NCBI GenBank assembly: GCA_047639575.1
Contig: JBLIOB010000001.1
Location: 178 to 64,177, forward strand
Direction of reading: 5' to 3'
DNA from: Parvicellaceae bacterium
GTDB taxonomy: Bacteria > Bacteroidota > Bacteroidia > Flavobacteriales_D > Parvicellaceae
DNA length: 64,000 nt
A model generated the notes under the pieces. That model made no database searches. It saw nothing but the letters and a program-made list of their open reading frames with translations, and was not told the DNA's origin. Both the position numbers and the translations under genes were made by a program. The first letter of the stretch is position 1. Each line of letters starts with the position of its first letter. Below, one piece after another: positions 30,866-48,722 of this stretch.

Positions 30866-30942
30866 GGTCTGGTAGTTCAGTTGGTTAGAATACCTGCCTG
30901 TCACGCAGGGGGTCGCGGGTTCGAGTCCCGTCCAGACCGCCA
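30866..30942 (+). tRNA. tRNA-Asp (anticodon GTC), CCA encoded
   Basis: The cloverleaf can be drawn by hand. Acceptor GGTCTGG/CCAGACC, anticodon stem CCTGC/GCAGG with loop CTGTCAC, T-arm GCGGG-TTCGAGT-CCCGT, discriminator G, then CCA. Confidence 0.95.
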
Positions 30943-31022
30943 GTTCGCAAGAACAAAAAGTAAGTCTTTATGGCTGAAGACCTAGAGAAGCCCGAGGAGT
31001 ATCAAAATCCTCGGGCTTTTTG
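30925..31022. repeat. attL: 98-bp direct repeat (last 18 nt of tRNA-Asp plus trailer and terminator)
   Basis: Matches 48625..48722 at 95/98 positions, at an offset of exactly 17,700 bp. Mismatches are at 30968, 30977 and 31012. Confidence 0.9.
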
Positions 31023-31026
31023 TTTT
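30988..31026 (+). terminator. Intrinsic terminator after tRNA-Asp trailer
   Basis: AAGCCCGAGGA-GTATCAAAA-TCCTCGGGCTT followed by TTTTGTTTT. Confidence 0.75.
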
Positions 31027-31033
31027 CTATAAA

Positions 31034-31057
31034 GGGGTCAGTTTAGGGATCAGATTA
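31034..31057 (+). repeat. Tandem 12-mer GGGGTCAGTTTA-GGGATCAGATTA (candidate arm-type recombinase site, attL arm)
   Basis: Starts 12 nt inside attL. Near-identical to the tandem GGGATCAGATTA x2 at 48477..48500, in the same orientation. Confidence 0.5.
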
Positions 31058-31222
31058 AAAATTCAATCAGAAAAGCTTACGTCACAATCTATGTCCTTAG
31101 GACTTAACCATCGATCCAGCTTTATTCGATTCTGCATATTATTTAGTAAGTTAACTAACTTATTGTACGCGTGCTAAGTCAAATATTGGCTTTCATTACA
31201 TACCAAAAGAACAATCTCTCTT

Positions 31223-33481
31223 ATGGCAAATTATGATTTTCAAAGTCTATTATCTCCATTAGATTTTGAACACCTGGTTAAGGATTTATTGTCAGCTGAG
31301 CTTCAGATTGAGTTCACAACATTTGCCAGCGGTAAAGATGGTGGTGTGGATTTGAGGTATTCAAAAAATGGTGAGTCAAATATTATTATTCAATGCAAAC
31401 GGGTTAAATATATTGGGAAAAAAGTTCTTCAAAAAGAGGCTGATAAGGTTAAGGAGTTGAATCCGGACTTTTACTATTTCGTTACTTCATCTGATCTTAG
31501 TGTTGCCAAAACCGATCAAATAAAGGAGTTGTTTAAAAACTGGATTGATAGTGATGAATACATATATACTAGGGAAAAACTAAATAGTCTTATAGATAAG
31601 CATAAAGACATTCATCAAAAACATTACAAATTATGGTTGAATAGCTCGACTATTTTCAATTCGCTAATTAATAACCATCTGTATGAAAGAGCAAAATCCC
31701 TGATTAATAGCATTTCTTCCTCTTATAAATACTATGTTAAAAATGACAGTATAAAAGACGCTATTAATATTTTGAATGAGAGTCAGTTTTTAATTATTAG
31801 TGGTATACCTGGTATTGGAAAAACAACATTAGCAAAACTTCTGCTCTGGGAGTACTTACAAAAAGGGTTTGAAGTAGTCGAAATCAGAAAAGTTATTGAA
31901 GGTGAACAAATTTTAATTGAAGAATCAGAAGCAAAACAAGTTTTTTATTTTGATGACTTTTTAGGCGAGAATTTTTTAAAATATGATGTTATTGAAGGAC
32001 GTTCATATGATCTTGTACAATTTATTCAACGAATAATGAGCAGTAAAAACAAGATTCTAATAATGACCACAAGGGAATACATATTAAATCAGGCGAAAGA
32101 AAAATACGACAAACTGGATTCAAATGAACTAAATATTTATAAGTACACTCTAGACCTAGACAACTACACGAAGAGAATAAAAACACTGATTCTATATAAC
32201 CATTTATTCTACTCGAAAATTAATGAAGCGTACATAAATAATATTATTTCTTCGAAGGCTTACAAAAAGATAATAAATCACAAAAATTATAGTCCCCGTA
32301 TTATCGAACAGATGACCACAAGGCTTCATAATGTAGCTCCAGATGATTATTCTGACGTGTTTTTGAATAATTTAGATAATCCATTTGGGATTTGGGACAA
32401 AGCTTTTAAAGCCGAAATATCTGAAGGCTCAAAATACACTTTGTATATACTATTGTCCATTGGTAAAGCTATTTCACTTTCAGATTTAAAAAAATCTTTA
32501 ACCTATTTTCACCAGATATCTGCAAAGAAAAATTCACTCGACTTTAGAACATTAGATTTTAAAAATTATTTAAAAGAACTTGAAGGAAGCTTTATAAAAA
32601 TTGATGTTACGGACGACTTAAATCACTATGTAGATTTTCAAAATCCTTCAATTAAAGACTTTTTACTAGAAATAATTAAGTCAAATGATGAAATCGCATT
32701 GATGCTTTTGCAATCTGCTTTTTTCTTCAACCAGTTTGTTTATGTAGTGAATTATTTGACTGAAAAAAATAATGATTTGGTAGAAACTAAAAACATAATA
32801 AGCTCAGTTGTAATAAATCGGTTTGAAGAATTCGAAAATTCAAGTAGTTTTTTTAGTGGCTATGAATTTGAAAATGAAAGGCGTGATATTAATATCATTG
32901 AAAGTTTGTCTGAGTACATGCAACGACATACTAATGATGAGCTTCTCGAATTTCTAATAAGTAAATTTGAAAAATTGGAGATTAGTCAGCTTTATACATC
33001 TGAAGAACCAGGGTACATTATGTTTTATTCAACCTTCAAGGAACGCATATCAATACCATTTAATCAAATATTGAAGCAATTATTCGACAACATTAGTTGG
33101 TTCAGAAGCGTAAAAAATTTCCTTCTCCTAAAACCGATTTCTGAAAAAGAATTTTCAGCATTTATAGAAGATCACAAGGAGTCTGTTGATGTAAAGGTTA
33201 TCGATGCAATTAGAAACGATATAGAATATGCACGCTCCGAGTCTTCCTTGAATACGCTTATTAGTAACATTGAATCTGAAATTGATAATTTGAATTTAAT
33301 TTCCAAATTCAATTATTCAAAATTAAAAATAGAGATAACCGATAAAATTAAAAGCGTTGTAACTGATGAAGATGAAAACAACGAGTTTTTAGACCAAGAA
33401 ATTAATATTGAAGAGGAATTTAACATGGAAGAATCAAATTTTAACGAAGATGAATATTTCAAAATTGAAATGTTTGATTGA
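31223..33481 (+). CDS. Mrr-like restriction endonuclease domain fused to STAND-type P-loop NTPase
   Basis: 752 aa. N-terminus LDFEHLVKDLL...GKDGGVDL...IIIQCKR (PD-(D/E)xK Mrr_cat pattern). Walker A ISGIPGIGKTTLAKLL and Walker B VFYFDDFLG. About 450 aa helical C-terminal region with an acidic tail. Confidence 0.7.
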   Translation: MANYDFQSLLSPLDFEHLVKDLLSAELQIEFTTFASGKDGGVDLRYSKNGESNIIIQCKRVKYIGKKVLQKEADKVKELNPDFYYFVTSSDLSVAKTDQIKELFKNWIDSDEYIYTREKLNSLIDKHKDIHQKHYKLWLNSSTIFNSLINNHLYERAKSLINSISSSYKYYVKNDSIKDAINILNESQFLIISGIPGIGKTTLAKLLLWEYLQKGFEVVEIRKVIEGEQILIEESEAKQVFYFDDFLGENFLKYDVIEGRSYDLVQFIQRIMSSKNKILIMTTREYILNQAKEKYDKLDSNELNIYKYTLDLDNYTKRIKTLILYNHLFYSKINEAYINNIISSKAYKKIINHKNYSPRIIEQMTTRLHNVAPDDYSDVFLNNLDNPFGIWDKAFKAEISEGSKYTLYILLSIGKAISLSDLKKSLTYFHQISAKKNSLDFRTLDFKNYLKELEGSFIKIDVTDDLNHYVDFQNPSIKDFLLEIIKSNDEIALMLLQSAFFFNQFVYVVNYLTEKNNDLVETKNIISSVVINRFEEFENSSSFFSGYEFENERRDINIIESLSEYMQRHTNDELLEFLISKFEKLEISQLYTSEEPGYIMFYSTFKERISIPFNQILKQLFDNISWFRSVKNFLLLKPISEKEFSAFIEDHKESVDVKVIDAIRNDIEYARSESSLNTLISNIESEIDNLNLISKFNYSKLKIEITDKIKSVVTDEDENNEFLDQEINIEEEFNMEESNFNEDEYFKIEMFD

Positions 33482-33566
33482 ACAAAACTTTAACTACCAA
33501 ATAAGCGCTTTAAAAATATCAGTCATGAGCGTGAAAGAAAAATACATTTAAATAGTAAAATAAACG

Positions 33567-35339
33567 ATGGGGCATATAATAAGTAACATTCAAATAAAAA
33601 ACTTCAAATCTGTCAAAAACCAAGAATTTGATTTATCTGCTTTCTCACCTCTTATTGGATACAATAACGCTGGAAAATCAAACATTTTGGAAGCAATAAA
33701 ATGGGTTTTAAGAAAAACATCATTAAAAAAAGATAGTTTCAACGATATAACTCAACCAATAATAATGATTGGTAAAATCGAAGGAATCACAACCGACATA
33801 TTAGACAATATTGACCCAGTTCATAGAACCAGAATAGTACCATTTCTTAACAATGAAACATTAACCATAAAGAGAATTCAGACAAGTCCAAGTCAGTCTG
33901 CCGCTCAAATTCAATTGCAAGTTTTAGACCCTACCGATGGTACCACATGGCAAAACAATCCTACCGGAATAGATAATGCAATAAAAGATTTATTCCCAGA
34001 ACCTATTCACATAGGCGCAATGGAAAATTCCGAAGATGACATTTCAAAATCTAGCACTTCATCTACTATTGGCAAACTATTAGCAGAAATAATAGAACCA
34101 ATTGAGCTGCAATATGGCCAACAAGTAAATACAGCGCTGAATGGTCTTAAGGAAATTTTGGATGCCGAAGGAATTCAACGTGCACCAGAACTTACGACTT
34201 TTGACCAAGAAATAAATGAAAAATTGGAAGCCTTTTTCCCCGATATAAAAGTAAAAGTGCACATTCCAACACCAGAATTAAAAGAAGTTTTCAAAAAAGG
34301 AACAATTAAAGTATATGAAAACTTATTGCCAACACCTAAGGATGTCAGTCTGCTGGGTCATGGTGCACAACGGTCCATTCAAATGACACTTATTAGACAT
34401 TTAGCGGATTTAAAATTAATCAGTCAAGAAAATAGGACAACAACATTATTACTGATTGATGAACCTGAACTTTATTTGCATCCGCAAGCAATAGAAATAT
34501 TAAGAAATTCACTTAAGGTATTATCCAATCAAGGGTATCAGGTTATATTTTCAACGCATTCACCTTTTATGATTACTCAAAAAGATGTAGGAAATACGAT
34601 CCTAATTAGAAAAAATGACGCTCTAGGAACATATAAAAGAACAACTCTAAAAAGTGCCATTCCGATTGTGGAACAAGAAGCCTCACATCAACTTACCTTA
34701 TTATACTCTTTGAGTAATTCTAGTAACATTTTGTTTTCAGAAAAAGTAATACTTACAGAAGGTAAAACAGAAAACAAATTACTACCCATTATTATTGAAA
34801 AAGTTACTGGGAAAACAATTTTATATCATAAAGCAGCTTTAGTTAAGTTGGATGGTTCGGGAAACACTAAAAAAACAATGCGAGTCCTTACAACAATGGA
34901 CCTGCCAACCAAAGCAATCGTAGATTTAGATTTCGCTTTAAAAAACGGAATAAGAGAGGGTTATTTACAAGCAGACGATGCCGATATCATAAGCTGTCTT
35001 GCCGAAATAACAAACTTAGCCGCTGGAAATAATATTGCAATAGGCTCTGACGGTTGGCCAACAAGCAGTAATGGTTCAATCTCGGCCGCTGCGGGTTTTT
35101 CAATTTTAGCTCAATCCACAAATACAGAAGATAACATTATTAATATCTGTGCTAAGATGAAAGATCACAACATATGGGTCTGGAAGCACGGGACAATTGA
35201 GGATCAGCTCGATCTTGATGGAAAAAGTGAGGCTATTTGGGCAGCATTTAATGAGTCATTGGAGCAATCTGATTTAGAAACAATCTTGCCTGTAAAACAT
35301 CAAGATATTGAGGATTGTATTAACTGGCTATTAGATTAA
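33567..35339 (+). CDS. OLD-family nuclease (ABC-type ATPase + Toprim)
   Basis: 590 aa. IKNFKSVKNQEFDL...GYNNAGKSNILEAI (Walker A), LLLIDEPELYLHP (Walker B), FSTHSP. C-terminal Toprim VILTEGKTE, AIVDLDF, and terminal HGTIEDQL. Confidence 0.75.
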   Translation: MGHIISNIQIKNFKSVKNQEFDLSAFSPLIGYNNAGKSNILEAIKWVLRKTSLKKDSFNDITQPIIMIGKIEGITTDILDNIDPVHRTRIVPFLNNETLTIKRIQTSPSQSAAQIQLQVLDPTDGTTWQNNPTGIDNAIKDLFPEPIHIGAMENSEDDISKSSTSSTIGKLLAEIIEPIELQYGQQVNTALNGLKEILDAEGIQRAPELTTFDQEINEKLEAFFPDIKVKVHIPTPELKEVFKKGTIKVYENLLPTPKDVSLLGHGAQRSIQMTLIRHLADLKLISQENRTTTLLLIDEPELYLHPQAIEILRNSLKVLSNQGYQVIFSTHSPFMITQKDVGNTILIRKNDALGTYKRTTLKSAIPIVEQEASHQLTLLYSLSNSSNILFSEKVILTEGKTENKLLPIIIEKVTGKTILYHKAALVKLDGSGNTKKTMRVLTTMDLPTKAIVDLDFALKNGIREGYLQADDADIISCLAEITNLAAGNNIAIGSDGWPTSSNGSISAAAGFSILAQSTNTEDNIINICAKMKDHNIWVWKHGTIEDQLDLDGKSEAIWAAFNESLEQSDLETILPVKHQDIEDCINWLLD

Positions 35340-35374
35340 ACAAGTTTGTATTAATACAGGGGAAAATCACATAA

Positions 35375-36079
35375 ATGGCTATATCAGATAAATCAAGAAA
35401 AAACCTATGGGCTAAATCCGGAAATCGTTGTGCAATTTGCAAAACAGAATTATTTGCAAAAGATGAAAGTGAAAATGAGTTTAACATCGGTGAAGAATGC
35501 CATATAATAAGTAAAAAAGATACTGGCCCAAGACATAAAGAAGGCCTAAGTGATTACGATCATCATAGTAATTTATTATTACTGTGTCGTAATCATCATA
35601 AAGAAGTTGACGAACTAATGGATACGTTTACCGAAGATCTCCTTAATTACATAAAAATTAATCATGAAAATTGGGTGAGAAAATCTCTTTCTAAATCAAT
35701 AGAAGGGGAATCACCGGAAGAACCAGCTTTTTTAACCTCGATTAAAACCGGAGCCCAACTACTAAATACATTACGATCAACTTTAGCTACTTCCATCGAC
35801 TTTGATGAAGTGCGTACTCAAGAAGAGTCGGTGATCGTTGGAGGAGCAAGTCAAACTTTAACAGAGTATTTAGATATTCTAGAAATTGTGGAACCCGGGG
35901 ATATTCCAGGATTATCATTACAAATGAAAGAATTTATAGAATCTTTGGAATCAAAAGGGTTCTTGCTTTTCGGACAACGTCAAGTGAGATCAATTCAAGT
36001 TGGAAGCAAATCTGAAAAAATAGATGTTGCTAATTTTGCAATTAAAAGAATTGATAGTCCTGATATCATTGCTTTATGA
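35375..36079 (+). CDS. HNH endonuclease with unassigned C-terminal domain
   Basis: 234 aa. CAICKTEL...ECHIISKK...LLLLCRNHHKEVD is an HNH/zinc-finger core. The remaining 130 aa have no motif I recognise. Lies 35 nt after the OLD gene. Confidence 0.75.
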   Translation: MAISDKSRKNLWAKSGNRCAICKTELFAKDESENEFNIGEECHIISKKDTGPRHKEGLSDYDHHSNLLLLCRNHHKEVDELMDTFTEDLLNYIKINHENWVRKSLSKSIEGESPEEPAFLTSIKTGAQLLNTLRSTLATSIDFDEVRTQEESVIVGGASQTLTEYLDILEIVEPGDIPGLSLQMKEFIESLESKGFLLFGQRQVRSIQVGSKSEKIDVANFAIKRIDSPDIIAL

Positions 36080-36206
36080 CCATTTGCAATTAAGAAACGA
36101 AGTTTGTGCCAGTCTTGAACTCTGAAGACTCTATTTATCGTTAAGTAAGTACTTATTAAATAGATCTGTTGAACGCCCATTTTTTTTCACATTCAAATGA
36201 TCTATT

Positions 36207-37412
36207 ATGGTCATAGATTCGGATAAAATCCTATTTTTTATAATTCAATTTAAAAGCTTAATCATGAATCTTGACGACATATTAGGTAAAGTTGACAAAT
36301 CCTTTGATTGGGACAAAACAAAAAAACTCAACTTTGCAAAGGTCTTCGTAACATTCGTTAAAGTTCGAGCCGCCTACTTGGACCCAAAAAAACGTGCCCG
36401 AATCGACCTTGAATTTAATCGAAGCATAATTATAGAACTATTTCAATTCAAGCCAAATATTAAATTTTTAATCGGTGACTGCGAGGATCAAGCGGTTCTG
36501 TTAGATGTACGAAAACGAGAATCAATGCACTCTCGAAACGAGTTGTTTTTCAATACCGCCTCTGCCCCATTCCAAGAAGACTTTTCAGAGGCCGTGCTAT
36601 TTGTTTTTAAAAACTATGTAGACAAAATCAATAATACTTTTGATTTTAAACTGCTAACATCGTCAATTGATCAGCTAGCAACTGAGCTAAGAGACGAACT
36701 AATATCCACCCATTACGTCCTGGATTATTTTATCAAACTGAAGCTGGAAATTCTCGATGAAGAATTCCCTCGTTTTTTCGATCCATATTTAAAAACGAAT
36801 AAATGGTCGATTGATGACAAGGTCAAATTAGTGCAAAAATTAATTAGCGAATATCGAATAGCACTTCTGGAAGATCGGTTTATTAATCCGGTAGAAAACT
36901 TTATGGTGTTAGGATACCGATATAAGGTATCTAAAGCCACTTCAGACAAATATGTACTGGCAATTGTATCGTTGCTAAATGATAGACTAGTTGCTTGGGA
37001 CGAACCTAGAATTGAGCTTACATTGAATGACAAAGTAGATCCTAGAATCGAAACTAACTCTGATGAAAACGAGATTTACAGCTACTTTCAAAAACTTAGA
37101 AACAAAAACAAAAAAGGACAGGAGATCATGTCTGAAAAAGAGATTCGCTTATTTATCGGATCAGCATTCGTTAATTGTGAATATCAGAAACTTGAGAACA
37201 AATTAAAGCCTAAAACTACGCAGCAGGCATTAAGAAAATTGGTACACGGATTTTACTACGAGGATAGGAATACCCAAGCTAATAAGCAGAAAGAATATTG
37301 CTTATTACTTATCAATAGTTTTGAGCAGTTTAAATCTTACGATCGAGCTGATGGTGTAGATGATTTATCAAAAAAATTAGGCAATTCTGTGGAAGGACAT
37401 TATCCTTTTTGA
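36207..37412 (+). CDS. Hypothetical protein (no recognisable domain)
   Basis: 401-aa ORF (alternative start ATG 36264, MNLDDILG). Codon-consistent long ORF followed by a hairpin at 37435-37461. Confidence 0.5.
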   Translation: MVIDSDKILFFIIQFKSLIMNLDDILGKVDKSFDWDKTKKLNFAKVFVTFVKVRAAYLDPKKRARIDLEFNRSIIIELFQFKPNIKFLIGDCEDQAVLLDVRKRESMHSRNELFFNTASAPFQEDFSEAVLFVFKNYVDKINNTFDFKLLTSSIDQLATELRDELISTHYVLDYFIKLKLEILDEEFPRFFDPYLKTNKWSIDDKVKLVQKLISEYRIALLEDRFINPVENFMVLGYRYKVSKATSDKYVLAIVSLLNDRLVAWDEPRIELTLNDKVDPRIETNSDENEIYSYFQKLRNKNKKGQEIMSEKEIRLFIGSAFVNCEYQKLENKLKPKTTQQALRKLVHGFYYEDRNTQANKQKEYCLLLINSFEQFKSYDRADGVDDLSKKLGNSVEGHYPF

Positions 37413-37434
37413 CCAAGAATTGGTGTTTGTAACT

Positions 37435-37472
37435 GGGGGATTAGGGGATCGGTCATCCCCCCTTACTTTATT
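37435..37472 (+). terminator. Hairpin/terminator-like element upstream of the excisionase gene
   Basis: GGGGGAT-TAGGGGATCGGTC-ATCCCCC (alternative inner stem GGGGAT/ATCCCC), followed by the T-rich CTTACTTTATT. Contains GATTAGGGGATC, which resembles the att-arm 12-mer junction GATTAGGGATC. Confidence 0.35.
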
Positions 37473-37505
37473 GATGACCATTGTATCGAATTAAAACTCA
37501 ATACA

Positions 37506-37814
37506 ATGAAAAAAGAAAACAATAAAGAACAAGACGAAAGGCTCCTCTTCAACTTAACCGTAACAGAATTACGTGCTTTAGTAAAAGAGCTATTATTAGA
37601 AACTTCGAACGAAAAACCTTCTGAACCAAACGGACCTGACGAATTAATTCCTCGCAAGGATTTAGCGCGAGAATTCAAAGTATCCTTAGTAACTATAGAC
37701 AGATGGACTAAACTTAATCTTCTTCCTAAAGCAATTAAACAAGGCGGTCGTATTTACTTTTCCAGAGCTGACATAAATAAGATGATTTCAGAGAAAGGAG
37801 AACGAAATGCTTAA
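37506..37814 (+). CDS. Helix-turn-helix excisionase/AlpA-like DNA-binding protein
   Basis: 102 aa. LIPRKDLAREFKVSLVTIDRWTKLNLLPKAIKQGGRIYFSRADINKMI matches the HTH_17/MerR-type excisionase pattern common in Bacteroidota integrative elements. Confidence 0.7.
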   Translation: MKKENNKEQDERLLFNLTVTELRALVKELLLETSNEKPSEPNGPDELIPRKDLAREFKVSLVTIDRWTKLNLLPKAIKQGGRIYFSRADINKMISEKGERNA

Positions 37815-38127
37815 GCTAGACCCTAAAATTACCCTGCAAGGAATTATTGATGGATTAACAACCAAACTGAATTCCTACTTAAGCGCAGAGCGCCCTTCAT
37901 ACAAAACAACAAAGGCTATGAAGAACTTAATCAATGACCTCTATCTCGTTTTTGACAATATGGACTTGCTACTTCTCTTCAGTATTTGGACAATTGTAGA
38001 GAAAAGAATCTTTGAAATCGAAGATTTAGATCCTGAAGTTTCCGTTTTCGTTATTGAACTGAGACGATCAAATAAAAATGACAATAAGGCAATTATTAAT
38101 CTAAATAATCAATCAGATGAAAAATGA
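37807..38127 (+). CDS. Hypothetical protein
   Basis: 106 aa. Overlaps the upstream gene by 8 nt and the downstream gene by 11 nt, so probably translationally coupled. Confidence 0.45.
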   Translation: MLKLDPKITLQGIIDGLTTKLNSYLSAERPSYKTTKAMKNLINDLYLVFDNMDLLLLFSIWTIVEKRIFEIEDLDPEVSVFVIELRRSNKNDNKAIINLNNQSDEK

Positions 38128-39361: not shown

Positions 39362-39565
39362 CCCCATGAACAGTGTTTATGCACCAACACCTTTGTTTAC
39401 AGATAGTTAAACATTAAACAATGAACACCAGTCCAAATTAATTTGAATTACGCTATTTCCATTTAAACTATAAGTAAAGCAGCTTAAGTATAAGTTAAAC
39501 ATCGGTTAAGCGGGGTTATGTTTAACCGCTTAAGCTATAGCTTACTTTAGTTTTAAATCCAATTT

Positions 39566-39916: not shown

Positions 39917-40113
39917 TGGATTACTTATCAATTGGAGATCCTTCTATTCCAAGTTTTAGCTTACCAGTAAAGGCTCAAGTTCCTGCGTCAAATAATAATG
40001 CTATTTGGTGGGTAATTGGAGGGGCGGTTGTAATTGGAGTTATTGGTTATTTAGCTTACCATTATGCCTATAAAATCAAAACTAGAACCAATACAACTGA
40101 AAGCGATATTTAG
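39916..40113 (+). CDS. Small membrane protein
   Basis: 65 aa with one clear TM helix (AIWWVIGGAVVIGVIGYLAYHYA). Confidence 0.4.
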   Translation: MDYLSIGDPSIPSFSLPVKAQVPASNNNAIWWVIGGAVVIGVIGYLAYHYAYKIKTRTNTTESDI

Positions 40114-41540
40114 GGTTCCAGCATCAATTTTACAGTCCTAGCTTTATGCCCACCAATAACAAAAGAACATAGATATATTCCTGGCGAGAACCCATTTAAA
40201 TCGAGTTCGATTTGACCTTCACGAAATAGAACTAGCCTTTCTAAGATTACTTTACCCATTAGGTCTGATATAATCACCTTTTCAATCTCTATCTCAGATT
40301 CAAATTGAATTGTAGTCGAACTGGAAAATGGATTGGGAAAAGCACTTATAGAAATATTAGCAATTTCTTCCTTTATTCCAATCCCATTACACCCCAAATC
40401 AATACATCCATAATAATCCGTTCTAAATAACCACAAATCTTGAGAAAATCCAGCATCGGCAAACACTACTCCCAAAAAGAGTAAGCTGCTATCCCCCAGC
40501 TCTTCTACATCATAGATATAATGATCATTTAAGCGCTTATCAGGCCTTCGTTGCCATATTTCGTTACAGTTACTATCAACTTTAACTATCCAACCCTGAG
40601 GGTCACTTAATGAAGGCGGATGCACCGTACCTGCAGCAATGAAAGAACCATCATCCAGTTCATGCCCCGCATACAAGTTCGCTCGGTATATATCTGTTTG
40701 ATCAAAAATAATTTGATTCTGGATAATTCCGTTCGTATTTAACTTCGTTATCTGGCCAGTGTATTCGCTAGCGGTGGACCACAGACCGTAGCACCAATAT
40801 CCAGTCTTTCCTGCCTCTACAAAAGCAATTTCACCTCCAAAACTAGTTCCGTAATCCCTTTCCCATTCAAACGCTCCAGATTCATCGACCTTTACTAAGT
40901 GCCAATTACCATTTGGCTCTATACTGTAGTTATATCCGGACATTAGATATCCTGAATCAACTCCAGGAACTATGCTAAATGCAATATCCGCACCCGCACC
41001 ACCGTACGTGCTACTGTCAAGTATATTACCAAGCGTATCTGTTTTTAGAAACAAAAAATCATTTCCGTTAGAAGGCGAATATTGATATCCACAAAACACA
41101 TAATTTGAATCATTAGCTACACAACCACCTAACAGAATCATCTGAAGAGAATTCACTGTGTAGTATCTGGACCAAACAAGTTCACCTGATTTTTTAATCT
41201 TGAAAGTAAATGCGCGTATAGTGTCTATAGCATTTACATTTCCATAACCAATGATATTATCTTCATGATCAACGTAAAATCCAAGATAGCCAACATCTAA
41301 ACTTATAGAATCGATAATGGTGAAATCAACAATTTTATTTCCGTTCGTATCAAACTTTGATAATATTAGATCCCGCTTAACAAAATCATCGGTCCATCCT
41401 ATCGTATAGAGCGTATCATCAATCATTTCCATCCCAATTCCAGCTTCAACCGCACCCCAATCATAGGTGTTATTAAAGAATTGTTGAGCATTGCTGCTAA
41501 ATCCAATTGAGATAAACGATATGATGAGTAGAACTCTCAC
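40110..41540 (-). CDS. Secreted repeat protein with T9SS C-terminal sorting domain
   Basis: 476 aa. Signal peptide, repeated propeller-like segments, and a C-terminal Por_Secre_tail pattern (FPNPFSSSTTIQFE...GIYLCSFVIGG). 4-nt overlap with the upstream giant gene. Confidence 0.65.
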   Translation of the reverse strand: MRVLLIISFISIGFSSNAQQFFNNTYDWGAVEAGIGMEMIDDTLYTIGWTDDFVKRDLILSKFDTNGNKIVDFTIIDSISLDVGYLGFYVDHEDNIIGYGNVNAIDTIRAFTFKIKKSGELVWSRYYTVNSLQMILLGGCVANDSNYVFCGYQYSPSNGNDFLFLKTDTLGNILDSSTYGGAGADIAFSIVPGVDSGYLMSGYNYSIEPNGNWHLVKVDESGAFEWERDYGTSFGGEIAFVEAGKTGYWCYGLWSTASEYTGQITKLNTNGIIQNQIIFDQTDIYRANLYAGHELDDGSFIAAGTVHPPSLSDPQGWIVKVDSNCNEIWQRRPDKRLNDHYIYDVEELGDSSLLFLGVVFADAGFSQDLWLFRTDYYGCIDLGCNGIGIKEEIANISISAFPNPFSSSTTIQFESEIEIEKVIISDLMGKVILERLVLFREGQIELDLNGFSPGIYLCSFVIGGHKARTVKLMLEP

Positions 41541-44500
41541 TTTCTAATAATAATTTTATCAAATTTAATTATAATGCCTCCTTCAATAACTTGAATAACA
41601 TACATCCCTTCTGGTTGGTCTTGAAGATCAACTGTTTTAGTTGTTCCGACAAAATTCAAATCCTGTACAAGTCTCCCATCCATCGTATATATACGCACTT
41701 TACCAGCTTCGAGTTCAACTTCCGATAATATATTAAGCATTCCCGATGTAGGGTTTGGATTAATATCCACTTCTTTTTCGATGATTTCATTTCCTGGATT
41801 CTCTTTATCTGACTTTATACTGCTCAGCGACTTACCTGCACCTAGAATATCTTCACCTCCAATGTATGGGAAACTATTTTTCACAAAATTCAAAATGGCT
41901 TCGGCATTTGCACGCACACCAACATCCCCTTTGTTAGCAATCACATCTAGTTCATTCATCTCAGATGAAGTAAGACTATAATAGCCGCCTGGTCGCTGTT
42001 TTACATGGGTCAGCAGTTCATGAAAATCACAAAAACTAATAACATTATCCCCTTTCTTATCTCCTGGAAGTTCATACTTTTTCATGTCTTCTCCTGCCAG
42101 GCGGATACTAGTCAAATGCTGACTTGCTTTAACCGGATCTCTTTTAATTTCAATTGGCACAAGAGCGCATGATGCTTCACTAGAACCGTCAAGCTCAAGA
42201 TAATAAACAGCAGTATCAATCCAAGTACTATCGATCCATGCACTGTCCAAAAATCGTCTGGTTAATCGCGCTAACTCAATGTTTTTGTTCAAATTAACCA
42301 TTGCAATTTCCTTTTCGATTTGGTCCAACGGTCTTATACCAGTTTGAACATTCTGAATTTGATTTAAGATTCCATTTGGTATGTTATCTGATTCCAGCCA
42401 AAAAAGAACTTTTTCACTAAGTGGACTATTTGCAAGAAGCACTTGTTTTAAATTTCCATTTGGCGGGTTAGACCATAAATATTCAATCAATACTTTATCA
42501 CTTAAAAAAGGCGATAGTGAAAGCAATTCATTTTTAACCTGGCCATCTGGTCCATTTGCAATTACGTCTAGCAAGGCATCAGCATCACCAGCATCAATTT
42601 GTTCCTCAAACAATATTTTTTGTTCCAGCAATGCAAAATATTTTCCTTTCCCAGTCCCTATAGGAGTGTTAACTAAACTGGTTACGCACTGTTCCACAGG
42701 TTCTGGCACACCTATGCAAATTTCTGCAGTACTTAGGTCAAAAGCGCAAGACGTTGGAACGTATCCTTCTCCTATGTACGAATCATATTCAAATAAATTA
42801 GTACCAGGGTTTCTATAATGCTGGTACTTGCTATTTAAAATGTCGCATGTTCCAGTCCAGTTATTTGCCATTTTAGAAAATTGCAATGGGCTTCCACAAT
42901 CTCCCTGATTTGCCATTAATCCAGTACTATGATGGTGCCCCACAATTGAATTACTTCCTATATCAAACCCATTACAATCATATTCTAATGCTAAATTATT
43001 TTGACTTGTTTGCAGGCCTATTGATATATCTGCAAAATCATTTAGGAAAATTTCACTTGCCAAGATATCACCGTTCTTTTTAAAAATTCCAGTACTTAAA
43101 TATGATTCTGTAGAAGAATAAGAGGTGAAATCATTATCTTCTATTTTAGAACCACTTACACCGTCACTGTAGATGCCAAAGTCCCAATATCGAGTTCCAG
43201 AAGTACCAACAGCGCCATCAGCGTTTGAAATTTGAAATTTATTTCGAGTTACATCCGATTTCGTATTTGTTCCAGCCATCCGAATTCCATATACACAATT
43301 TGAAAAATTGTTTTGATCTATTGTCGCTTTTCTATGTGTCGACCCTTCCAATGAAATTACTCCAGCATATAAGTTGTTAAATGAATTGGACCTTGTGAAA
43401 TCTGAACAGAATGGATCAAAAAATCCACAAACTGGACCTACTCTCATGCTAGCATCAAGCATAACTAAGCCGCTTCCTCTTTTATCAAAATCAAATTCTT
43501 CCCAGGCTAAATTGTCAAATACGTTGTTTTCAAAATCTACACCTTGAATATCATACATTGTGACATGGGCGTACGGTCCATCTTCTTTATCAGGATAATT
43601 TAAATCTGTTAAAAAGAGTGAATTTGTCACTTTAGACAAATTATTTCCTCCAACATCATAGCTCATGAATTCAATGGATCTCCAATTATTTCTAAACGTT
43701 GAATTATTCGCTGATATTACTCCTCCTGTTGTGTTCCAATCCAAATTTCCATTTGAATCCTCGCCAATTAATTGAACTGCATTTCTAGCATACTCAATTA
43801 CCGCGTTTTCAAGTAATACAATTCCACGATTTGCAGGATTCAATTGGCTGCTTGATACATCTCCCTCAATAATTATCCCATCCCAAAACACTCCGCATTG
43901 ATTCGTTATGGTTCCTCCGTTAACTGTAAACTTGCCGCCTTTTTTAACCGTAATCGATTTTCCAGCCGACATAAAAATCTTACCTTCTAAAATCACCTCA
44001 GAATTTGTAGGAACAATTAGATTATTTAAATACTTTTCTTCACCAGTAATAGTTCTTAGAGACTGACCATGACTTAAATCTTCACCCAAATTATTTACAG
44101 GAAGTTTAGATTTCCAGATACCTCGTCCATAAGTTGAAATAAATATCTCTTTGGTACAATTGTTAATCTCCAAGTCGGAAACCATTGCCACAGGCAAATT
44201 ATTATTAAAACATTCCCAGGGAGTACTTTCATCCGTAGCATCGGATTTATAATAAACACCTACATCTGTTGCGGCATAAATAGAGTTTCCGCCCCCATCA
44301 ACAAATACAAGCTTCTGTACCGGTAAGCCCGGCAAACCCAAGGATACGTCAGTCCATGATGCTCCATTGTCATCAGTGAATAAAACGCTTCTTTTTCCTG
44401 AAGGAGTGGCTGAAGTATAATTAGTTGAAATCCAAATTTTAGAGGGATCCTCGGGATGAAAAGTTACATGGGTAATTGTAGCCCACTTTAACGCATCGAA

Positions 44501-47035
44501 TAATTCAGGCGAATTAGAGCCTCTTGTCAAATCAGTCCAGTTAGATCCATTATCTAATGTTAAAAAAAGCTTACTATGGATATCAGAAGGACTTGTAACT
44601 CCTTCCGCATTCAAGTGATTTCCAGCAGCTACAATAACTATATTATCATTTTTATCATAAATATTCACGCTGCGATATTTGGTTTTGAAATCGGCAACAA
44701 ATGGATCACTTGGATTAACAATATTAAATGATCCAAAATTGTCATTCGTATTTCTTAAATATTTAAGTCCTCCATACCAAACACGGTCAGGATTCAACTT
44801 TGATCGGTCAAAATTTGACTCTAAACTTCCATCACTTAACCCTCCGGATCCTGGACCTCCACAAGAACTAATACCAGTAAGCGTTGTTAGGTTCCAACCA
44901 CCGCAGCAACCATGCTGAATTACACTTGTGGTACCCGTAAGTTCGTTAATATGAACATCTCCTCCATCGGAGCCACATCCTCGCGTCCAAGATTCACCGT
45001 CACCGCCAAGAGTTCCATTATCTTGAGTCCCTCCAATGATAACTTTTGAACTTTTATCAGTAACATCCATTCCATAGAACTGCGTATTATTTAGCCCTTT
45101 CCCATTAATATTCAAAGTTGTGGCATAACCATCTGGTGTAAATGTTATTCCACCGTCATTCCCTATCAAAACCACATCGTTTCCATTTCCCGTTGGATCC
45201 GAAGCAACAATTTGAATAGCTCTTGTATCACCATGTATCCCATGAAATCCCGCTGGACCAACTTCAGTTGAGATTCCAGAACTAAGATTGCCTTTTAACA
45301 AAACCACATTATCCATGTACCACCATTCAGGGAAATCCTTATTAATTGCAAAATCACCATGAAACAAACTTACCCCTGAACAATCATCATAAAAACTCCA
45401 AGTAATCCCATAATCTGATGATTTATATATTATTTGTTCATCGGTTGCTGCATAAATATTACCCATATTATCATGTTCAACTTCAATATTTCTATGCACT
45501 AAAAGCTCGTTTAAAATCACATCTATGTTATCCATTATCACTTTGTCCGCTCCAGCATAGGTTGCATTACTCGTAGCTTCAAACCATAAATCGGTCATTC
45601 CAAAATCACCCAAACTTGGATCAACCAAAAACGGCAAAGTTTCATTCGAGTATACCATATCTGTGGTTGCGATTGCGCCAGAATTACTTTCCCAAATTGG
45701 TAAAAACTGATCTCCTAATCCAGATACAAAATGTCTCGCAAAAACGGTCAATTTAGTATCCTTCGGCACCCTTGCATCAAATACCAAATCAAAGTTCCTT
45801 CCAAATTGCCAACCAAAAATATCCGAGGCTTTCAATCTTGCTTTTGGTTGACGTGGCTGAATTGGATCATTTATGTCCGGTAATGCAGCAGCCACAATAT
45901 TTGTTGGATCAAGAGGGTCAATTTCATATTTCCAAGTTCTAAAGCCATAATTAGGAGCACTTGATGAAGAGACAAAGGGATGGGTCAATTGATTTCCGAT
46001 TGTTCCGCCTTCCATGTCTCCAGCTATTTCCAAAACAGAGCCATTACCCATAATTACTATTTGATCTGTAAAATTGTGCCAAGTTGCACCTCGATCTGTA
46101 GAAACGAGCGCGTTTGATGAACTATTCCCGTCAGCTTTACTACCAACTACTACAATTGTGTTTCCTCCATCATCCATAACCTCAATGTCATGAAACCAGT
46201 GGTTATTTGCACCATGAATTTGCGAAGCGGGAGGTGTTACTTCGGTGTAAATATTTGAGCAGGTGTTGTACCAAAACAACCTTCTTCCAAAAGAAACAAG
46301 TGCCTCACACGGTACATTTGGGTCAAAATCTACGTTATGTGAGACTGCTCCTGCAACTTGATCAACAGGTATCGCAGAAGGAACATCAACAATATTCCAA
46401 TTTTTACCTTTGTTTGTTGAAATGAGTAATCCCATTCCGTAATTAAATTGGCCTAATCCCAGCGCAGCCAATACAACATTATCATCTCCGGGCTTAACTG
46501 CAAAATCATTAATCCCAATTCCCGGATGTCTCAGATTATCTGTAACACAATTCCAGTTGACTCCACCATCTTCAGTTCTCCAAATACCAGAAGTTGCGGC
46601 ACCTGCTAAAATCGTATTCCTGTCATTCTCGTACATATGGACAGCAATTATTCTCCCTTGACTTTGTACATCAAAGAAAAATGGACCTACGAATCCCCAA
46701 TCACTCTCTCCCCCATCGCAAACTGCGGATCCTGAGAAAGCCTTAACCGCATCAACAAATGTACCCGGCTTTCCCGTTTCCATTGCCGAGGTTCCTCTAA
46801 GACGGTCATCAAATAACCATTTAGTTCTTTCATATTCTTTCAGCTGAGACTGTGTCCAGTTTAACTTAATATTTGAAGCATCTATGGCATTCGTTACATT
46901 ATAAAAGTTATAAGAAGCATCTATTCCTTCCAAATGCGACTTTGGCGTTTGAGCGGTCGCATGACTGTATAGACACAACATTAATATCCCTATTAAGGAG
47001 CCTATTTCACAGATTTTTTTTAGCTGGAATTTCAT
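41537..47035 (-). CDS. Giant secreted BNR/Asp-box repeat + right-handed beta-helix protein with T9SS C-terminal sorting domain
   Basis: 1832 aa. Signal peptide. At least six Asp-box motifs (TEDGGVNW, STNKGKNW, STDRGATW, SSDYGITW, TLDNGSNW, TDDNGASW). The central region has parallel beta-helix-like repeats. C-terminal NPNPTSGMLNI...GMYVIQV sorting domain. Confidence 0.7.
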   Translation of the reverse strand: MKFQLKKICEIGSLIGILMLCLYSHATAQTPKSHLEGIDASYNFYNVTNAIDASNIKLNWTQSQLKEYERTKWLFDDRLRGTSAMETGKPGTFVDAVKAFSGSAVCDGGESDWGFVGPFFFDVQSQGRIIAVHMYENDRNTILAGAATSGIWRTEDGGVNWNCVTDNLRHPGIGINDFAVKPGDDNVVLAALGLGQFNYGMGLLISTNKGKNWNIVDVPSAIPVDQVAGAVSHNVDFDPNVPCEALVSFGRRLFWYNTCSNIYTEVTPPASQIHGANNHWFHDIEVMDDGGNTIVVVGSKADGNSSSNALVSTDRGATWHNFTDQIVIMGNGSVLEIAGDMEGGTIGNQLTHPFVSSSSAPNYGFRTWKYEIDPLDPTNIVAAALPDINDPIQPRQPKARLKASDIFGWQFGRNFDLVFDARVPKDTKLTVFARHFVSGLGDQFLPIWESNSGAIATTDMVYSNETLPFLVDPSLGDFGMTDLWFEATSNATYAGADKVIMDNIDVILNELLVHRNIEVEHDNMGNIYAATDEQIIYKSSDYGITWSFYDDCSGVSLFHGDFAINKDFPEWWYMDNVVLLKGNLSSGISTEVGPAGFHGIHGDTRAIQIVASDPTGNGNDVVLIGNDGGITFTPDGYATTLNINGKGLNNTQFYGMDVTDKSSKVIIGGTQDNGTLGGDGESWTRGCGSDGGDVHINELTGTTSVIQHGCCGGWNLTTLTGISSCGGPGSGGLSDGSLESNFDRSKLNPDRVWYGGLKYLRNTNDNFGSFNIVNPSDPFVADFKTKYRSVNIYDKNDNIVIVAAGNHLNAEGVTSPSDIHSKLFLTLDNGSNWTDLTRGSNSPELFDALKWATITHVTFHPEDPSKIWISTNYTSATPSGKRSVLFTDDNGASWTDVSLGLPGLPVQKLVFVDGGGNSIYAATDVGVYYKSDATDESTPWECFNNNLPVAMVSDLEINNCTKEIFISTYGRGIWKSKLPVNNLGEDLSHGQSLRTITGEEKYLNNLIVPTNSEVILEGKIFMSAGKSITVKKGGKFTVNGGTITNQCGVFWDGIIIEGDVSSSQLNPANRGIVLLENAVIEYARNAVQLIGEDSNGNLDWNTTGGVISANNSTFRNNWRSIEFMSYDVGGNNLSKVTNSLFLTDLNYPDKEDGPYAHVTMYDIQGVDFENNVFDNLAWEEFDFDKRGSGLVMLDASMRVGPVCGFFDPFCSDFTRSNSFNNLYAGVISLEGSTHRKATIDQNNFSNCVYGIRMAGTNTKSDVTRNKFQISNADGAVGTSGTRYWDFGIYSDGVSGSKIEDNDFTSYSSTESYLSTGIFKKNGDILASEIFLNDFADISIGLQTSQNNLALEYDCNGFDIGSNSIVGHHHSTGLMANQGDCGSPLQFSKMANNWTGTCDILNSKYQHYRNPGTNLFEYDSYIGEGYVPTSCAFDLSTAEICIGVPEPVEQCVTSLVNTPIGTGKGKYFALLEQKILFEEQIDAGDADALLDVIANGPDGQVKNELLSLSPFLSDKVLIEYLWSNPPNGNLKQVLLANSPLSEKVLFWLESDNIPNGILNQIQNVQTGIRPLDQIEKEIAMVNLNKNIELARLTRRFLDSAWIDSTWIDTAVYYLELDGSSEASCALVPIEIKRDPVKASQHLTSIRLAGEDMKKYELPGDKKGDNVISFCDFHELLTHVKQRPGGYYSLTSSEMNELDVIANKGDVGVRANAEAILNFVKNSFPYIGGEDILGAGKSLSSIKSDKENPGNEIIEKEVDINPNPTSGMLNILSEVELEAGKVRIYTMDGRLVQDLNFVGTTKTVDLQDQPEGMYVIQVIEGGIIIKFDKIIIRK

Positions 47036-47202
47036 AGATCATAAGTGTTAAGTAGCGTTCACATTAAACATAAACAAAAAACTTCACTTTACACCACAAC
47101 ATGTTCTATTAGTGATCTTTATGTCACACAACTTTCATATTCATTGAGTTTCTACTCCTTCTTTTAAATGTTTCTACAAAACATATGGTAAAATAGATTG
47201 AG

Positions 47203-48447
47203 CTAAAAGTAATCAGCATATTCAGTCGCGGTCAACTCAGCATCTAACTTCAAATACTTCATAAAACTCTTTTCCGTTTTATGCCCACTAAACATCATTA
47301 TAGCCTGAGCAGGCATGCCAACAATAAACTTTAATGTACAAAACGTCCTTCTACAAGAATGCGTTGATATTTCTTGATATTTGGGCCTAAACTCTTCGAT
47401 CGTTTTACCAGAACTTCTCTTATAGATTGTAATCGAATCATCTATTTCCGCACGTTTACATAAATCACGAATTGTATGATTAAACAAGGTTAGTTTTCTA
47501 CTATCGAAAGTTGGCAATTCAGCTTTATATTTTTCAAGTATTAGTCTTACGCGAGTACTTATCGGAATTTCTTGCTTAGAGCCCGTCTTTTTACTTCTTA
47601 TTATTAATCTATCTCTCTCAAAATATTGGGGTTTAAGCCTTGAGAAATCACTAAATCTTAATCCTGTTTCACAGCCGATCATGAATAAATCCCTAACTAT
47701 AATCTCATTTTCGTTTTTTAACTCCAAAGATTCAAGACGTAATAATTCGTCAGACTTGAGATAGACCTTATCCACTTCCTCCATTAATGTTGGCAAATGT
47801 TTCAAACTGTACCTTGGGTGTATTTCCCGATCAAAGCACCAATTTAAAAAGACCTTCAAGTTCTTATGCTGTTTCCCCACCGTATTAACCGACAAACCAT
47901 GATCACCTTTTGAATTGACAGCTTCATAAATTAAATATTGGTCCCAAGCATCCACGAAACCTTCATGTTGCAACTTGATAGAACGAAAAGTTAAAGACTG
48001 CCCAAACTTCACTTCTCCAGCTTGAAGATGCTTTCTTAATGAATTGTGGTAATCACGCACATCACCGAGTTCTGTTCTTTTAAAAGACACGAAATCTTCG
48101 AAATGATCCCAGAACTCCTTCTTTACTTTTGGCTGGATAGGATTGGCTTTAAGATTTAAAAACTCTTGCCTCAATATTTCAGCCTTTGGTATCCACCCTT
48201 CTGATTTATACCCATTATACAAGTCTATCATAAGACGAGACAACTTCTCTAATTGCAGATTAATTTGACCGTTATCTGGCAATTCCAACAACTCTTTTGC
48301 ACGTTGCTTTCGATCATTCCAATATTTAGGCTCAATCTTATAACCCGTAGACAGTTTTATACGTTGTCCATTAAAATTGAAGATGAGATTAATCAGCGAT
48401 TTGTTCTTCGCATTTTTGTTTTTAAGATTAAAATTCACTTCTGCCAT
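47203..48447 (-). CDS. int: Tyrosine recombinase/integrase (Bacteroidota type with N-terminal arm-binding domain)
   Basis: 414 aa. Catalytic pattern GLRFSD (Arg), HSCRRTF (His-x-x-Arg), and GHKTEKSFMKYL (His ... Tyr). Lies 177 nt from attR. Confidence 0.9.
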   Translation of the reverse strand: MAEVNFNLKNKNAKNKSLINLIFNFNGQRIKLSTGYKIEPKYWNDRKQRAKELLELPDNGQINLQLEKLSRLMIDLYNGYKSEGWIPKAEILRQEFLNLKANPIQPKVKKEFWDHFEDFVSFKRTELGDVRDYHNSLRKHLQAGEVKFGQSLTFRSIKLQHEGFVDAWDQYLIYEAVNSKGDHGLSVNTVGKQHKNLKVFLNWCFDREIHPRYSLKHLPTLMEEVDKVYLKSDELLRLESLELKNENEIIVRDLFMIGCETGLRFSDFSRLKPQYFERDRLIIRSKKTGSKQEIPISTRVRLILEKYKAELPTFDSRKLTLFNHTIRDLCKRAEIDDSITIYKRSSGKTIEEFRPKYQEISTHSCRRTFCTLKFIVGMPAQAIMMFSGHKTEKSFMKYLKLDAELTATEYADYF

Positions 48448-48476
48448 ATTGATCGTTTGTTCAAATATACGAAAAG

Positions 48477-48500
48477 GGGATCAGATTAGGGATCAGATTA
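48477..48500 (+). repeat. Tandem 12-mer GGGATCAGATTA x2 (candidate arm-type recombinase site, attR arm)
   Basis: Perfect tandem copy 30 nt upstream of the integrase start codon and 125 nt inside attR. Matches 31034..31057. Confidence 0.5.
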
Positions 48501-48624
48501 TCTATATTTATCATTATATCAATTTTTCTTTCGCAACCCAAAAAACATCTTAAAGCGCAACTACTAAAGGCTTTTAAAGAAACAATAGACAACATTTAAC
48601 AAAGTTAGAAAACATGGTTTTGCG

Positions 48625-48722
48625 GTCCCGTCCAGACCGCCAGTTCGCAAGAACAAAAAGTAAGTCTATATGGCTGTAGACCTAGAGAAGCCCGAGGAGT
48701 ATCAAAATCCTTGGGCTTTTTG
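48625..48722. repeat. attR: 98-bp direct repeat containing a displaced tRNA-Asp 3' fragment
   Basis: GTCCCGTCCAGACCGCCA plus trailer and terminator, 95/98 identical to 30925..31022. No 5' tRNA half is present here. Confidence 0.9.

Follow-up and report, generated by a model that had tools for sequence, protein, structure and literature searches.

The 64-kb stretch of Parvicellaceae bacterium DNA analysed here (denoted the window; draft assembly GCA_047639575.1, 4.4 Mb in 429 contigs, 94% complete; the host is a Flavobacteriales bacterium of the Crocinitomicaceae type) carries, directly downstream of a tRNA-Asp gene, a 17.6-kb insertion bounded by 98-nt direct repeats. We interpret the insertion as probably a site-specific integrative island belonging to a clade of Flavobacteriales integrases, many members of which target the 3′ end of tRNA-Asp. 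The original prediction, made from the sequence alone, had described a satellite or mobilisable island at this tRNA. Its integrative nature is borne out by an empty site in a relative and by an attachment-site (att) layout that recurs across the clade, and this part of the label is solid; "satellite" and "mobilisable" are unsupported guesses, as no gene for packaging, helper interaction or a relaxase was found.

The integration target is an intact tRNA-Asp (GTC) gene at 30866–30942 on the forward strand, which was called by ARAGORN and scored 69.6 bits against the Rfam tRNA family. It is the sole tRNA that ARAGORN reports in the window and is present in a single copy in the whole 4.4-Mb assembly; an Rfam scan of the window matched no other family. 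A repeat search revealed two 98-nt direct repeat copies, 95/98 identical (97%) and spaced 17,700 nt apart, which are confined to these two places in the assembly. The left copy, attL (30925–31022, forward strand), consists of tRNA positions 60–77, the trailer hairpins and the terminator; the right copy, attR (48625–48722, forward strand), consists of the same 3′ tRNA fragment, trailer and terminator and yields no tRNA call by ARAGORN. The tRNA share of the repeat is thus its first 18 nt, and the remaining 80 nt are made up of the trailer, with two small hairpins, and an intrinsic terminator. Repeat length, identity, offset and tRNA content, and the reading of the right copy as a mere 3′ tRNA fragment, are those originally proposed. 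The two copies differ at 30968/48668 (T/A), 30977/48677 (A/T) and 31012/48712 (C/T), and the longest exact run common to both is 43 nt, which makes a duplication by assembler repeat collapse unlikely. Twelve intact genes lie between attL and attR.

Since the species-representative genome set contained no member of the same genus, the same-genus comparison came from metagenome contigs. The GHL10 protein of the left flank has no exact entry on record, but a metagenome scan with it (88% amino acid identity) retrieved contig Ga0316202_10000021 (denoted L040), from a genus-level relative, which is collinear with window positions 19683–31022 at 79% nucleotide identity. The homology breaks off with the final base of attL (31022) and picks up again at 48625–48736, which corresponds to the next 100 nt of L040. 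Downstream of tRNA-Asp, L040 has the trailer, the terminator and then GCTGCTTGGAACTTT; the same sequence, GCTGCTTAGAACTTT, follows attR in the window. The segment CTGCTTAGAACTTT at 48723–48736 (forward strand), which agrees with CTGCTTGGAACTTT in the unoccupied site of L040, is the chromosomal DNA that originally lay downstream of this terminator, and L040 contains no counterpart of the DNA right after attL (TTTTCTATAAAGGGG...). In L034, a more distant, family-level metagenome-assembled genome (MAG) of the Crocinitomicaceae, tRNA-Asp with a homologous trailer and terminator is directly followed by a host gene. Collectively, these data demonstrate that, compared with the genus-level relative L040, the 17.6 kb enclosed by the repeats have been inserted. 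The unoccupied tRNA-Asp site that the original prediction had named as a check in related genomes therefore exists, with its boundaries at the repeat.

The repeat mismatches do not place the crossover: all three positions in L034 read as in attR, and L040 has the attR base at the paired two and the attL base at the remaining one. The left boundary of the tRNA fragment is constant across the integrase clade, which suggests that strand exchange takes place in or next to the 18-nt tRNA segment.

The trailer itself contains a hairpin with an invariant 8-nt loop, TATGGCTG, which is found in the window at 30964–30981 and 48664–48681, in L034 at 3840–3860, in L040 at 11344–11362, and upstream of the integrase gene in L136 and L137. 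Its stem covaries across the family (GTCTT/AAGAC, GTCTA/TAGAC, CTCA/TGAG, CCCA/TGGG). The hairpin matches no Rfam family and is a conserved host element. In Flavobacteriales bacterium UBA1986 (L032, 2340–2404, reverse strand), the trailer hairpin and terminator, with 28 nt identical to the attR version, lie downstream of a protein-coding region, and no tRNA was called in the 8 kb of this locus; they could represent what is left of an att site, or a terminator module that has been reused. In L040, the gene that comes first behind tRNA-Asp encodes a 232-amino-acid protein sorted by the type IX secretion system (T9SS) and has the same terminator sequence on both sides (11361–11404 and 12220–12259), which may reflect an earlier insertion there.

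Comparison with a conspecific metagenome contig, L035, placed a second, independent rearrangement junction, specific to the strain, at 48737–48815. L035 is 99.4% identical at the nucleotide level to window positions 53899–48815 and continues from DUF4920 into DUF218, not into the tRNA; the DUF4920–DUF218 order is also found in the genus-level relative. Compared with L035 (5092–5386), the window lacks 295 nt including the 3′ end of DUF218, such that DUF4920 abuts the tRNA-Asp/attR region. The breakpoint lies 15–93 nt outside attR and leaves the island's own junctions unaffected. The remainder of DUF218 resides on contig C62 of the same assembly and is cut off at a 140-bp repeat resembling a miniature inverted-repeat transposable element (MITE). 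This repeat has 18-nt terminal inverted repeats (GGTTCTGTCGCATCTGTG) and is present in about nine copies in the genome (C62 14258–14397, C297, C143, C423, C149, C80, C29, C51 and C142), one of them exactly at the DUF218 truncation point. Family-level relatives among the species-representative genomes retain the SDF–OmpA–DUF4920 order of the right flank, with no tRNA nearby.

The island encodes a tyrosine integrase of the Bacteroidota type (414 amino acids; 47203–48447, reverse strand) with Phage_integrase (Pfam, 8.7e-13), Arm-DNA-bind_5 and SAM_5 domains. The catalytic R, K, HxxR, H and Y residues, assigned by eye in the translation, are present (GLR, KKTGSK, HSCRR, SGH and KYLKL). A sequence search of the PDB matched no solved structure. 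Among 5.8 billion proteins, 1258 homologues were found at E≤1e-30, the best of them 54% identical; a single-protein search of genome contigs gave just one match, 32% identical. An alignment of 24 homologues led to 79 loci from named genomes, mostly MAGs of Crocinitomicaceae and other Flavobacteriales. Of the 71 loci with enough upstream DNA, 19 contain a tRNA-Asp 3′ fragment of 15–24 nt, which starts at tRNA position 58–63 (52 and 55 in two loci), is inverted with respect to the integrase gene and lies ∼180–220 nt upstream of its start. The attR described here has the same layout, 178 nt upstream of the integrase gene.

Between the tRNA fragment and the integrase gene, tandem direct repeats of 11–12 nt were located by script 25–75 nt before the integrase start in nine of 16 inspected loci, and by eye in two more. 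Their sequences differ by lineage (ATCTGACCCCT; ATCCGTCCCCC; TCTGTCCACGGT; TCGCGCCACGG; TGTTGCACAA); the one in the window is TAATCTGATCCC, the reverse complement of GGGATCAGATTA. Both arms of the island hold such a tandem 12-mer pair: GGGGTCAGTTTA plus GGGATCAGATTA in the left arm (31034–31057, forward strand) and two exact copies of GGGATCAGATTA in the right arm (48477–48500, forward strand), 30 nt upstream of the integrase start, where relatives have equivalents. Exact copies of GGGATCAGATTA occur three times in the 64 kb (31046, 48477 and 48489), all beside the att sites, and a degenerate partner is located at 31034. Because their position is fixed and their sequence lineage-specific, we read the tandem 11–12-mers as candidate arm-type sites, which the N-terminal Arm-DNA-bind domain of the integrase would bind.

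Many members of the integrase clade target the tRNA-Asp 3′ end, and some use other targets. In genome G043 (L022/L132, 3808–5519), a 48%-identical clade integrase is encoded 386 nt downstream of a complete tRNA-Met, which points to target switching within the clade. The 48%-identical integrases of G023 and G043 were considered as belonging to the same element as the island and rejected; one of them sits by tRNA-Met. At E≤1e-40, the clade is represented in three of 61 genomes of the family.

The core of the island is encoded on the forward strand, between the cargo genes. It begins with orf401 (36207–37412), a member of an unnamed, sparse family with 31 homologues among 1.84 billion representatives, whose AlphaFold2 model (pLDDT 83) is mostly helical. 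No Pfam family matches it, the model has no fold match in PDB or BFVD, and no match was found in the phage collection; the alignment of its family is too divergent to serve in pattern searches. Its best homologue, P0127, heads a similar run of small open reading frames (ORFs), followed by Hachiman and Kiwa. We assign orf401 to the island core, not to the cargo; it is possibly a DNA-binding regulator or initiator. The idea that it is a hidden primase or relaxase was rejected on the basis of the mostly helical model and the lack of PDB, BFVD and Pfam matches, and the model, inspected by eye, does not suggest an archaeo-eukaryotic primase (AEP) fold. Behind orf401 lies a terminator-like hairpin (37444–37460, forward strand) that contains GATTAGGGGATC. 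This sequence (hairpin region 37435–37461) resembles the arm-repeat junction GATTAGGGATC but is one base longer, and it may be a third integrase-binding site or a coincidence. A scan of the window for sigma-70 promoters and terminators stayed at or below shuffle expectation and is uninformative for a Bacteroidota genome.

Next in the core is a gene for a 102-amino-acid HTH_17 protein of the MerR/excisionase type (37506–37814; Pfam HTH_17 1.3e-7; PHROG 66 "excisionase and transcriptional regulator" 1.9e-9), a candidate recombination directionality factor or regulator. The following orf106 (37807–38127), without a family at E≤10, overlaps its neighbours by 8 nt and 11 nt and is thus probably translationally coupled in a core operon. 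The third of these genes encodes a DUF3987 P-loop protein of 414 amino acids (38117–39361; Pfam DUF3987 3.4e-54; PHROG 2373 DNA helicase 1.7e-40) with Walker A (GFSGLKKS) and Walker B (VVLKKDE) motifs, which is predicted to be the replicative helicase of the element. DUF3987 proteins have been predicted to be replicative helicases of mobile genetic elements (MGEs) (PMC5862659), and the PriCT–DUF3987 protein of a tRNA-integrated Flavobacteriia MGE carrying a prokaryotic Argonaute (pAgo) has been demonstrated to be a 5′–3′ helicase that binds its AEP primase-polymerase (PrimPol) (PMC11724360). The nearest database homologue of the island protein is 31% identical and is encoded in a small integrase–HTH_17–DUF3987 element (L028). 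This module recurs in L154, L121 and the family genomes G003 and G009; DUF3987 as such is found in three of the 61 genomes of the family, and this distribution, like that of the integrase clade, is sporadic, in line with an integrative island. Downstream of the DUF3987 gene lies a 204-nt non-coding spacer (39362–39565) densely filled with short direct and inverted repeats (GTTAAACAT three times, GCTTAAG/CTTAAGC), a candidate origin. Two further small genes complete this segment: orf116 (39566–39916), a core accessory protein with a 33%-identical homologue in L154, no family and an AlphaFold2 model of moderate confidence (pLDDT 78) without fold match, and orf65 (39916–40113), which has no family.

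On the tRNA side of the core, three genes on the forward strand encode nuclease-based anti-phage candidates. The first product (31223–33481, 752 amino acids) joins an Mrr-type nuclease (Mrr_cat 7.5e-10) to an nSTAND3 NTPase (1.8e-46) and matches the PADLOC candidate system PDC-S73 over its full length (1.6e-138); its gene has a G+C (GC) content of 29.3%. The second (33567–35339, 590 amino acids) is an OLD-family ATPase–Toprim nuclease (PADLOC Old 4e-228, residues 3–588, full length; Pfam AAA_15, AAA_21 and OLD-like_TOPRIM) with the layout of that family, an ABC-type ATPase head and a C-terminal Toprim domain, and is a candidate for an anti-phage role. Only 35 nt further downstream, the third gene (35375–36079) encodes an HNH nuclease of 234 amino acids (Pfam HNH_2 1.2e-6), whose N-terminus resembles the SAVED-HNH effector (7.8e-27) and PDC-M68A (2e-23) in PADLOC and whose C-terminal half is without assignment. 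A second OLD gene, 47% identical to that of the island, is located on contig C236 (2740–4497); it is followed ∼310 nt later by a 438-amino-acid ORF and has no closely spaced HNH gene.

Between the core and the integrase gene, two genes on the reverse strand encode T9SS-sorted proteins: one of 476 amino acids (40110–41540; Por_Secre_tail 1.6e-8) and a giant protein of 1832 amino acids with BNR/sortilin-like repeats (41537–47035; Por_Secre_tail 5.3e-11, Sortilin-Vps10 1.6e-11). The pair has paralogues elsewhere in the genome (C33 1–3378, C62 163–1584, C152 3030–5063 and C273 1–2188). The closest of these, on C33, C62 and C273, are 63–82% identical at the amino acid and 68–76% at the nucleotide level, and that on C152 is lower. 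All four contigs hold paralogues of the 476-amino-acid protein, and C33 holds a 67% paralogue of the giant one. The T9SS cassette is thus a multi-copy family in this genome, and several contigs break inside its paralogues.

The gene content of the island matches that read from the sequence beforehand: a tyrosine integrase at the tRNA-distal end, an AlpA/excisionase-like helix-turn-helix (HTH) gene, a DUF3987 gene, a nuclease/NTPase block (31223–36079) and secreted cargo (40110–47035). A comparison of composition, proposed at that stage against the flanks and made here against the genome, gave a split result. The defence block alone is foreign in composition (GC 31.8% against 37.2% for the genome; tetranucleotide distance at the 97.7th percentile, which is atypical), whereas core (35.4%) and T9SS pair (37.8%) resemble host DNA.

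To place the cargo in the context of the clade, we surveyed 76 ORFs of at least 150 amino acids located within 10 kb downstream of the integrase gene in 16 loci of the tRNA-Asp type; some of these ORFs may lie in host DNA beyond short islands. Surface or secreted proteins comprised Por_Secre_tail (5), CHU_C (2) and PorP/SprF (2) proteins as well as FG-GAP (domain matches in four proteins) and RHS-type proteins (RHS/SpvB/TcdB_midN in two). Defence genes comprised type I restriction-modification, McrBC, DndF/G, a reverse-transcriptase defence gene, PDC-S01, DrmMII and WYL. With the same caveat about host DNA, the combination of defence genes and T9SS substrates looks typical of the clade and not peculiar to this island. 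Two sister islands, L172 (14642–21199) and L173 (14528–20830), have giant ORFs of 2100–2185 amino acids near the integrase gene.

The sister islands L128–L179, from MAGs of Crocinitomicaceae and other Flavobacteriales, share with the window the tRNA-Asp fragment ∼180–220 nt upstream of the integrase gene, the tandem repeats and the T9SS and defence cargo; they differ in an integrase that is at most 54% identical, in the arm-repeat sequence and in that DUF3987 is mostly undetected within 10 kb. By module content, the closest sister is L154 (integrase 44%, HTH_17, DUF3987 28%, orf116 33%), which in addition carries a DUF6371 primase-like gene and other cargo (GmrSD-like, RimK, resolvase) but likewise lacks a relaxase. 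DUF3987 matches in the phage collection include three small, unannotated gut "Bacteriophage sp." scaffolds, of which MT836643 was examined in detail. This gut-metagenome scaffold is an integrative and mobilisable element (IME) resembling the non-replicating Bacteroides units (NBUs), with genes for HTH_17, integrase, HTH_17, DUF3987, DUF6371/Zn-ribbon, MarR-like, NikA-like and MobA/VirD2 relaxase proteins. It shares with the island the order of an integrase with Arm-DNA-bind_5, SAM_5 and catalytic domains, then HTH_17 and then DUF3987, but its DUF6371/Zn-ribbon, NikA-like and MobA/VirD2 relaxase genes have no equivalent there.

A comparable likeness is seen with the tRNA MGE of Seonamhaeicola sp. 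S2-3 (PMC11724360), which also resides in a Flavobacteriia host, has the integrase at one end and the tRNA at the other, and combines a DUF3987 helicase and HTH proteins with variable defence cargo and a slightly low GC content. MGEs of this type carry a long-B pAgo, the PrimPol AgaPP (a BT4734-like AEP) and the PriCT–DUF3987 helicase AgaPH (PMC11724360). In contrast, the island lacks an AEP primase-polymerase, PriCT and pAgo, its DUF3987 protein is at most 31% identical to anything, and it has orf401 and T9SS cargo instead. Phage satellites, i.e. P4-like elements, phage-inducible chromosomal islands (PICIs), PICMIs (minimalist islands of the phage-inducible chromosomal kind; PMC10803314) and virion-encapsidated integrative mobile elements (VEIMEs; PMC9618062), resemble the island in having an integrase, an AlpA-like HTH protein, a helicase, a tRNA site, a defence load and no structural genes. 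Unlike these, the island has no recognisable gene of the psu/sid/delta, terS, capsid-morphogenesis or packaging kind, no link to phages or viromes was found, and its size and T9SS load are atypical. The closest described relatives of the integrase–HTH_17–DUF3987 module are Bacteroidota elements, NBU-like IMEs and the Seonamhaeicola pAgo island, not P4 or PICIs; the label of a satellite or mobilisable element given in the original prediction stays an analogy.

Searches of the island with Pfam, PHROGs, NCBIfam and PADLOC gave no match to capsid, terminase, portal, tail, lysis, relaxase, MobC/NikA, type IV secretion system (T4SS) or primase genes, in agreement with the first reading, which had recognised no capsid, terminase, tail, relaxase or T4SS gene. 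Moreover, tblastn detected no vestige of the primase-like, NikA or relaxase proteins of MT836643. The island thus contains neither the T4SS/Tra genes of an integrative and conjugative element, nor the capsid, portal, terminase, tail and lysis genes of a prophage, nor, by Pfam, an own relaxase or NikA/MobC as in an IME. It does contain the gene set of a satellite in the form of an integrase, an HTH_17 regulator and an own replication protein; satellite packaging or capsid-hijack genes (terS, psu/sid/delta, cpm/ppi, capsid) were not recognised by Pfam or PHROG, and core ORFs without assigned function could hide such roles. Nothing in the island reveals its route from cell to cell. The data lend positive support neither to a satellite route nor to conjugative mobilisation; either may apply, because four core ORFs have no assigned function and helpers need not be resident.

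These features suggest how an integrative island of this kind may work. The integrase would bind the tandem 12-mers in both arms via its Arm-DNA-bind_5 domain and recombine within or next to the 18-nt tRNA segment common to attP and attB, with the HTH_17 protein serving as excision cofactor or regulator. The excised circle would probably be replicated from the spacer at 39362–39565 by the DUF3987 helicase together with orf401, orf106, orf116 and the host primase and polymerase; the element itself encodes no primase.

Several observations weigh against this interpretation or narrow it. The present-day mobility of the island is something we infer. An attP that includes an 80-nt copy of the host trailer is unusual and implies that the island has long resided in the lineage or that the repeats have been homogenised. 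In most clade loci no DUF3987 is detectable within 10 kb, which indicates that integrase and core can be separated as modules. Relatives have a fuller replication module: the island lacks an AEP PrimPol, a DUF6371/Zn-ribbon primase-like gene and PriCT. Old T9SS paralogues exist elsewhere in the genome, and this together with the host-like composition of the core and T9SS genes suggests that part of the island content may have been gained in situ. Finally, a rearrangement affects the right flank 93 nt beyond attR, in a draft that is fragmented into 429 contigs.

The last point bears on whether the 98-nt duplication or its joins could stem from mis-assembly of a fragmented, metagenome-type draft, for which the number of contigs and the real discordance with the conspecific contig so close to attR could be cited. 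We give this explanation almost no credence: the repeat copies differ at three spaced positions and are distinguishable by k-mers, given their longest shared run of 43 nt, a single contig contains both junctions in its interior, the sequence flanking attR agrees with the relative's empty site, and the layout with an integrase-proximal tRNA-Asp fragment is found in 19 independent assemblies. The same flank rearrangement, the host-like composition of the core and T9SS genes, the three repeat mismatches, which fit some age, and the primase missing relative to relatives would be consistent with an immobilised remnant, that is, an old integration now fixed as a locus for defence and surface proteins, domesticated by the host and no longer able to excise. 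Such a remnant is unlikely, however, as all 12 ORFs are intact, the integrase has kept its catalytic residues, the arm repeats are exact, the att repeats are still 97% identical over 98 nt and the island is absent from the genus-level relative.

Two further explanations concern the route of transfer. As a phage satellite like P4, PICI, PICMI or VEIME, the island would excise and replicate upon helper infection and be packaged in helper capsids, and its defence genes would protect the host or hinder the helper. The backbone of integrase, AlpA-like HTH protein and helicase without structural or conjugation genes fits this view, as do the defence cargo at one end, reminiscent of the hotspots of known satellites, and the marine VEIMEs (integrase, AlpA, primase/helicase, excisionase) integrated in Flavobacteria among others (PMC9618062); orf401, orf106, orf116 and orf65 could hide helper-interaction functions. 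We nevertheless consider a satellite doubtful. No terminase small subunit, capsid-size redirection gene, cos/pac site or phage-repressor-like gene was detected; orf401, orf106, orf116 and orf65 have no PHROG match, and orf401 and orf116 no fold match. Among the 2.9 million contigs of IMG/VR, the integrase clade has only one distant match and the DUF3987 protein no relative, and the DUF3987 matches in the phage collection include a relaxase-carrying IME. The assembly contains no Terminase_6N (PF03237), though a virulent helper is not expected there, and the island's 17.7 kb, of which T9SS genes take up 7 kb, are a large size for a satellite with such a gene set. Alternatively, a relaxase-less derivative of an NBU-like IME would be conjugated in trans by the relaxase and T4SS of a co-resident element via an oriT, possibly in the 39362–39565 spacer. 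The shared order of integrase (Arm-DNA-bind_5), HTH_17 and DUF3987 in MT836643 and the repeat-rich spacer after DUF3987 are compatible with such an origin; yet no vestige of a relaxase, NikA/MobC or primase is present in the island, the 94%-complete assembly contains neither a PF03432 relaxase nor a CTnDOT TraJ (PF07863), and a relaxase is likewise missing from L154, the related element closest to the island, which renders this derivation very improbable. A more far-reaching idea, to which we attach little probability, is that the island represents an undescribed helper-dependent (satellite-like) element family of the Crocinitomicaceae, in which the sparse orf401 family, with orf106 and orf116, would act as a switch that detects phage infection and fires the HTH_17–DUF3987 operon for excision and replication, the T9SS pair would remodel the surface and block phage adsorption, and the element would spread in helper capsids. 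If true, surface-level and intracellular immunity would be combined in one element.

Taken together, the site-specific integrative island at tRNA-Asp is a cleanly delimited, apparently intact case of aquatic, little-studied Flavobacteriales moving anti-phage genes and T9SS surface proteins together. It does not overturn current understanding, as tRNA-borne defence islands are already well known. Its cargo offers defence candidates in PDC-S73 and in the putative pairing of an OLD nuclease closely followed by an HNH nuclease, and orf401, orf106 and orf116, being without recognisable family or fold, may hold new functions in excision, replication or transfer. The integrase clade, the tRNA-Asp fragment and the lineage-specific tandem arm repeats at fixed distances from the integrase gene provide a marker set for sister islands in MAGs, and it is this clade-level architecture of att sites and arm repeats, together with the core proteins without family, that most merits follow-up.

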